64,000 nucleotides of DNA from Escherichia coli (GTDB taxonomy: Bacteria; Pseudomonadota; Gammaproteobacteria; Enterobacterales; Enterobacteriaceae): assembly GCF_009931435.1 (NCBI RefSeq), contig NZ_CP043414.1; one strand, written 5' to 3'. The position numbers and the translations under genes are program-made. Under the pieces are notes generated by a model. That model did no database searches. It was given only the letters and a program-made list of their open reading frames with translations, and was not told where the DNA came from. Of this stretch, positions 36,096 to 36,667 are shown piece after piece; the stretch's first letter is position 1, and each line of letters opens with the position of its first letter.

Positions 36096-36218
36096 GGTGG
36101 GCGATTCTAATTAGCCAACAGGATTCGCGCCACTCATTTTTCTATGCTTATATTTAGTTTTGCACCTTATTACTCCACTACGTCATCACTTTATTGATGG
36201 TTATTAAACCAATCACCA

Positions 36219-36587
36219 TTAAGAAGTGAAAAAACTGTGAGTAAGCGGGTGATAAATGGTAAAAGTCATCTTGCTATAACAAGGCTTGCAGTGGAATAAT
36301 GAGAACGTTTCCGTGTCCATCCTTGTTAAAACAAGAAATTTTACGGAATAACCCATTTTGCCCGACCGATCATCCACGCAGCAATGGCGTAAGACGTATT
36401 GATCTTTCAGGCAGTTAGCGGGCTGCGGGTTGCAGTCCTTACCGGTAGATGGAAATATTTCTGGAGAGTAATACCCAGTCTGTTTCTTTGATAATTGCGC
36501 TGTTTTTCCGCATGAAAAACGGGCAACCGACACTCTGCGCCTCTTTGAGCTGACGATAACCGTGAGGTTGGCGACGCGACTAGACAC
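36219..36587 (-). CDS. yceQ: Doubtful ORF (yceQ-like) antisense to the rne promoter and 5' leader
   Basis: 122-aa minus-strand ORF with no recognisable domain, at the position where K-12 annotation places yceQ; may not be a real protein. Confidence 0.25.
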
Positions 36588-36667
36588 GAGGCCATCGGTT
36601 CACACCCGGAAAGGCGTTACTTTGCCCGCAGCTTAGTCGTCAATGTAAGAATAATGAGTAAGTTACG
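36300..36667 (+). promoter_or_regulatory. rne promoter and long structured 5' UTR (RNase E autoregulation element)
   Basis: About 570-bp divergent gap between rluC and rne; established knowledge places a roughly 360-nt autoregulatory leader upstream of rne; exact boundaries not determined here. Confidence 0.55.

Follow-up and report, generated by a model that had tools for sequence, protein, structure and literature searches.

The yceQ-like reading frame antisense to the rne leader of Escherichia coli is very probably a by-product of the RNase E control region

Does the antisense open reading frame of 122 codons between rluC and rne in Escherichia coli encode a protein, or does it merely overlie a structured RNA? 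We addressed this question in a window of 64 kb, by which we mean the whole stretch of DNA that was analysed. The initial annotation had described a divergent region of about 570 bp between the two genes, had placed the autoregulatory 5' UTR of RNase E in it, and had left the reality of the antisense frame unresolved. The locus is organized as follows.

35136 to 36095, minus strand: rluC coding sequence (23S rRNA pseudouridine synthase), an ORF of 319 aa that carries the name rluC in the annotations of K-12 and strain 2013C-4282.
36096 to 36667: divergent spacer between rluC and rne, 572 nt between the two coding sequences.
36668 to 39853, plus strand: rne coding sequence (RNase E), 1061 aa.
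36219 to 36587, minus strand: yceQ-like antisense ORF, 122 codons plus stop, GTG start, judged spurious.

The estimated size of the divergent region was accurate, its exact extent being 572 nt (36096-36667). This spacer was matched in 5425 of 5426 complete E. coli genomes, the top match reaching 99.8%. An exact-motif scan taking one genome per species gave 120 loci, of which 107, in Enterobacterales, have the divergent rluC/rne pair; their spacers measure 552-808 nt, mostly 555-600 nt. As detailed below, we regard it as very probable that the spacer is the control region of rne and that the antisense ORF is its by-product, an annotation artefact. That yceQ is an artefact over the rne5 element is already known, and the question left open by the initial annotation had in fact been settled in the literature in favor of a non-coding, non-essential ORF (10.1101/038851, PMC5821084, PMC6242692). 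The window departs from K-12 by a frame that is two codons shorter and by one residue.

The ORF was found on the minus strand at 36219-36587 with its 122 aa, and its description as yceQ-like was appropriate, as it has the same locus, strand and frame as K-12 yceQ (b1085), of which it is the ortholog. K-12 yceQ is annotated with 106 aa and a start at an internal GTG (window 36533), while the window ORF runs 18 codons further upstream and ends two codons before that of K-12, with TAA in place of TGC-TGG-TGA; one residue is changed, F for A. An SD-like AAGAGG precedes the K-12-style GTG at 36533, separated from it by 6 nt. The curated MG1655 record keeps yceQ as "DUF2655 domain-containing protein YceQ", and genomes annotated with the current NCBI pipeline (PGAP) carry no feature at the ORF.

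Nothing in the translated ORF resembled a known protein family. The reported lack of a domain signature was borne out, since the translation had no match at E<=1 in Pfam-A or NCBIfam; DUF2655 survives just in source names. Against PDB sequences, the best match had an E value of 0.45, and a single-sequence AlphaFold2 model had a mean pLDDT of 36 with no residue above 50. These two outcomes may be taken as weakly consistent with a non-coding ORF. Among 5.8 billion proteins, 32 clusters matched the ORF, all of them enterobacterial and 68-156 aa long, the closest being 96-98% identical to the window ORF. These clusters include truncations and chimeras hopping between two antisense frames, namely that of the yceQ-like ORF and that of a second, shorter ORF:

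36407 to 36595, minus strand: second antisense ORF, 62 aa, ATG start, in a different frame, judged spurious.

We considered the 62-aa ORF as a real small gene, as at first it seemed more widely retained, and rejected it: most genera retain just 3-16 codons of the frame, and its entropy is flat by codon position (Kruskal-Wallis p=0.79). The sole invariant "protein" stretch of the clusters matching the yceQ-like ORF is the reverse complement of the invariant sequence of hairpin hp2, which belongs to the RNA encoded on the opposite strand. The elements of this RNA, with the Rfam structure given in window coordinates, are these.

36307 to 36643, plus strand: RNase E 5' UTR autoregulatory element, Rfam rne5 (RF00040), 260.1 bits, E 4.6e-82.
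36309 to 36348, plus strand: hairpin hp1.
36358 to 36414, plus strand: hairpin hp2.
36420 to 36634, plus strand: branched hairpin hp3.

The claim that the spacer holds the autoregulatory 5' UTR of rne was confirmed by this RF00040 match, which is full-length (model positions 1-333 of 333) and, with 260.1 bits, exceeds the gathering score of 180. The element lies directly 5' of rne on the same strand, the rne ATG being at 36668. We then projected the Rfam consensus structure on an independent MAFFT alignment of 53-54 leaders ranging from Escherichia to Photorhabdus. Across the 84 RNA base pairs, 89.4% of cells were standard-paired, versus 32-43% when the partners were slid by 1-3 columns. Compensatory double changes occurred in 41 of the 84 pairs, and the number of double-change cells was 245, compared with 95±8 in shuffles; by any measure of pairing or covariation, 0 of 500 shuffles attained the observed values. 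The window leader therefore shares with the Rfam family its position 5' of rne, its helices and its covariation, and is a typical E. coli member. It is 100% identical to the K-12 leader (98% over the whole spacer). In E. coli, RNase E reportedly exerts feedback on its own mRNA, as established by the work of Jain and Belasco in 1995, Diwa and colleagues in 2000 and Schuck and colleagues in 2009.

The initial annotation had the ORF running antisense through this leader. This holds for codons 1-94, which overlie the helices of hp1, hp2 and hp3, but not for the last ~29 codons, which reach beyond the leader to overlie the following two elements.

36271 to 36300, plus strand: rne P1 promoter, with -35 TTGCTA, an 18-nt spacer and a TG-extended -10 AATAAT (9/12 matches).
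36235 to 36256: predicted double DnaA box, reading CTGTGAGTAAGCGGGTGATAAA on the plus strand.

P1 was the sole promoter-like site within 35900-36900, and it ends 7 nt ahead of the first Rfam-matched base, 36307, which is position -361 relative to the rne ATG. The published start of rne P1 at -361 coincides with this start of the Rfam match, and the two together suggest that transcription starts at 36307. The -35, the -10 and the upstream AT-rich stretch of P1 are nearly invariant across Enterobacterales, from E. coli to Photorhabdus. The rne promoters p2 and p3 are also said to have been mapped, by Ow and colleagues in 2002.

Read on the minus strand from 36256 to 36235, the predicted double DnaA box gives TTTATCACCCGCTTACTCACAG, which is identical to the double-box site published from DnaA ChIP-seq: in K-12, a ChIP-seq peak at 1,144,772, labelled "(yceQ) rne", covers the same double box (PMC11317965). 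The box is kept across Enterobacteriaceae and is not conserved in more distant Enterobacterales. Its position upstream of P1 hints at a link of the replication initiator to RNase E expression. The 3' part of the DNA beneath the ORF is thus also conserved because P1 and the DnaA double box underlie it, and the variable part of the spacer (36156-36235) starts just past these elements, going downstream on the ORF strand.

Next, we asked whether the ORF carries any coding signature of its own. To score codon usage, we derived log-odds values from 49 long ORFs of the 64-kb window that are likely genes. The yceQ-like ORF scored -0.198 bits/codon, under all 49 likely genes, which scored 0.324±0.096 (minimum 0.099); the 62 shadow ORFs scored -0.069±0.198. 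The GC content at first codon positions was 0.40 for the ORF, 0.60±0.05 for the likely genes and 0.52±0.09 for the shadow ORFs. As for length, when the spacer was shuffled 5000 times with its dinucleotides preserved, an ORF of at least 122 aa arose in 0.98% of cases and one of at least 100 aa in 4.9%. Within real genes of the same 64-kb window, however, we counted 33 shadow ORFs that are 122 aa or longer; therefore, ORF length alone is no evidence of a gene. The length of the yceQ-like ORF is locally uncommon and genome-wide unremarkable. Long antisense ORFs were also seen in the 3' half of rne (245, 243 and 152 aa; window 38342-39607, minus strand), presumably reflecting the biased, repetitive composition of the C-terminal scaffold of RNase E.

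We also analysed how the frame fares in other genomes. From the aligned start it comprises 122, 124 or 127 codons in all six Escherichia sequences, including E. albertii. The C-terminus of the ORF varies among E. coli lineages, with stops at 122, 124 and 127 aa and other tails. In Citrobacter without a repeat insertion in the leader (described below), the frame has 100-106 codons, or 49 when frameshifted; in two Citrobacter with the insertion, the frame runs into the insert, giving 146 and 101 codons. Of 36 Enterobacteriaceae outside these two genera, 34 have a frame that closes after 4-60 codons, and the remaining two have no start codon at the aligned site and four ±1 indels. Nearly all indels within the ORF span are ±1. 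The DNA beneath the ORF is 80-90% identical across those Enterobacteriaceae genera. The locus is thus conserved as DNA and not as a reading frame.

Selection on the frame was measured against three Citrobacter sequences whose alignment with the ORF is gap-free or near gap-free. The dN/dS of the ORF was 0.90-1.15. For the first 450 nt of the flanking rne and rluC it was 0.005-0.035 against the same Citrobacter and 0.003-0.035 over all genera (rne 0.003-0.017 for the first 450 nt; rluC 0.009-0.035 against other genera). Differences at codon positions 1, 2 and 3 numbered [16,7,11], [14,9,13] and [16,7,12] in the ORF, and, for example, [2,1,39] and [2,1,59] in rne/rluC. The pS against the three Citrobacter was 0.08-0.10 for the ORF and 0.40-0.61 for rne/rluC, for which the values against Citrobacter span 0.35-0.61. 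The "synonymous" sites of the ORF are thus 4-6 times more conserved than those of its neighbors, and therefore the constraint ignores the codon frame. In agreement with this, column entropy over 41 Enterobacteriaceae sequences showed no periodicity (0.41, 0.34 and 0.44 by codon position; Kruskal-Wallis p=0.43). Two comparisons within Escherichia gave a dN/dS of 0.19, a value that rests on just 5 differences (3 synonymous and 2 non-synonymous; p about 0.08 by a binomial estimate), too few to be informative. Codon usage, periodicity, ORF conservation and dN/dS, the sequence checks proposed with the initial annotation, all came out against a gene, and its doubt about the ORF was well founded.

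These data bear on the possibility that yceQ is a real, young, Escherichia-restricted de novo gene antisense to the leader, with weak or condition-specific expression. Such a gene would be in keeping with a frame that is open in each of the six Escherichia sequences examined, with the SD-like motif ahead of the K-12 start, with a length in the 1% tail of the spacer shuffles and with the annotation retained in K-12. However, the leader DNA is 99-100% identical within Escherichia, and the frame is open across the genus because of this identity; in Citrobacter, where the frame can still be aligned, dN/dS is close to 1. The variable C-terminus, the codon usage resembling that of shadow ORFs, the AlphaFold2 pLDDT of 36 and the lack of a PGAP call weigh in the same direction, as do two published findings, the absence of ribosome footprints (10.1101/038851) and the viability of a nonsense mutant at codon 8 (PMC10249474). 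Overall, we consider a young gene extremely unlikely.

The published experiments on yceQ agree with an artefact over the rne control region. Price et al. 2016 saw no ribosome-profiling reads on yceQ under three conditions, reported that the ORF is disrupted in some strains and that transposon insertions occur solely in the orientation able to drive rne, and concluded that yceQ encodes no protein (10.1101/038851); that yceQ is untranslated is taken here from the statement of this one paper. Using TraDIS, Goodall et al. 2018 likewise observed one-orientation insertions and reached the same conclusion on yceQ (PMC5821084). Rousset et al. 2018 found dCas9 to be toxic at yceQ just on the strand that blocks rne (PMC6242692). 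In Salmonella, the yceQ ortholog is an annotated pseudogene and still resists insertions (PMC3487940).

Two further reports concern point changes. Three synonymous Ser recodings in yceQ were non-viable, with a reported spacing of the recoded sites of 14 and 24 nt (PMC7614783). We infer that these are K-12 codons 2, 7 and 15, whose spacing is 15 and 24 nt and which would lie at window 36489-36530, inside hp3. Conversely, the nonsense mutation at codon 8 arose in an engineered strain that was viable. Protein-coding constraint predicts the reverse of this pattern, in which synonymous changes kill and a nonsense change does no harm. The case resembles that of ypaB in the nrdA promoter, also a small ORF that seems essential via the promoter or leader of its neighbor, with strand-dependent dCas9 effects (PMC6242692). 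Unlike ypaB, yceQ overlaps a long structured 5' UTR in addition to a promoter, which is why its synonymous recoding is lethal.

A different possibility is that the minus strand yields a non-coding antisense RNA (an upstream rluC transcript, for instance) that pairs with the rne leader and modulates RNase E, as in a divergent "excludon". ExcludonFinder has rne-yceQ among 16 divergent MG1655 excludons (PMC12288877). We examined this entry as evidence of an antisense transcript and set it aside, as it derives from the yceQ annotation, which the 5' UTR of rne necessarily overlaps. Our search for promoter-like sites on the minus strand found none in 35900-36900. Moreover, dCas9 directed to the yceQ coding strand had no fitness effect (PMC6242692), and cells tolerate transposons at positions that would interrupt such a transcript, provided that rne is still driven (10.1101/038851, PMC5821084). 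We thus judge a regulatory antisense RNA to be very unlikely. Put more generally, there is a very slim chance that the frame is open in Escherichia through a very young micro-protein or a functional antisense transcript acting under unsampled conditions. If true, this would add a second control layer on RNase E expression.

Several observations concern the rluC side of the spacer and the history of the locus. Compared with K-12, the rluC side (window 34835-36334) is ~96% identical, with a dS of 0.16 for rluC, and the leader (window 36335-36634) is 100% identical, with a dS of 0.03 for the start of rne. Spacers at least 99% identical to that of the window occur in just 31 of 5425 E. coli genomes. 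Judging from these sequence comparisons, the rluC allele of the window looks like a divergent, possibly recombined one, with the boundary at the rne promoter. Two loci, L036 and L087, come from species-representative genomes titled Escherichia coli; relative to the window, their dS is 0.32-0.52 for rluC and 0.14-0.31 for rne. Because such values are far above the usual within-species level, these genomes probably represent cryptic Escherichia clades.

The rluC-proximal segment 36096-36155 is well conserved in Enterobacteriaceae (entropy 0.28-0.76, versus 0.93-1.59 for 36156-36235) and is probably the promoter and 5' UTR of rluC. An RNA polymerase SELEX peak has been reported at K-12 position 1,144,848 (~window 36187), between yceQ and rluC. 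Insertion sequences were present between rluC and the DnaA boxes in the spacers of natural E. coli strains, namely IS1 (NZ_CP024859) and ISEc11 (NZ_CP119441). The insertion points correspond to window ~36146-36154 and ~36230-36232 (L123, L124). The segment from rluC to the DnaA boxes is therefore dispensable in cis for rne. We also considered these natural insertions as a test of whether the ORF itself is dispensable, and discarded this use of them: the sites are either external to the ORF or at its very 3' end, and say little about it.

Some relatives carry an insertion within the leader itself. A dispersed repeat of ~125 nt was found in the rne leader of L034 (spacer ~354-482) and also in L055, L069, L023 and L066, the carriers being Citrobacter youngae CCUG 30791, Citrobacter sp. 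Cu233, a Pseudocitrobacter MAG, Kluyvera genomosp. 1 and strain RIT691. The insertion point corresponds to window ~36447-36455, just past the 5' arm "CCGG" of an hp3 helix. The repeat core, GAACCCCCAGAAGCTTAC…GTCTGGGGTGAG, presumably resembles the ERIC/IRU element consensus. In E. coli, 4618 of 5426 genomes carry this repeat at 60-80% identity (median, 4 copies per genome). Evidently, the essential rne leader tolerates the insertion of such a repeat.

Taken together, our model reads the spacer as a control region for rne. On the plus strand, the predicted double DnaA box is followed by P1 and by a leader of 361 nt, which would begin at 36307 and folds into hp1, hp2 and the branched hp3. From what is known in K-12, RNase E would bind hp2, leading to faster decay of its own mRNA, and the enzyme level would be set by this feedback. 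The minus-strand frame from 36587 to 36219 would be free of stops in Escherichia by chance, and it would stay open via selection on RNA pairing and promoter sequence, with no protein involved. Deleting or blocking "yceQ" would be harmful solely through loss or block of rne expression.

The consequences are practical. The Keio and PEC lists, as well as the K-12 reference record, still present yceQ as an "essential gene of unknown function". Its treatment as a coding sequence has misled codon-replacement projects, in which synonymous yceQ changes proved lethal through damage to the rne leader. The value of the analysis thus lies in annotation hygiene and in caution for genome engineering; it raises no new biological question. 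It provides a worked example of an ORF that is seemingly conserved purely as the reverse strand of a constrained RNA and its promoter.
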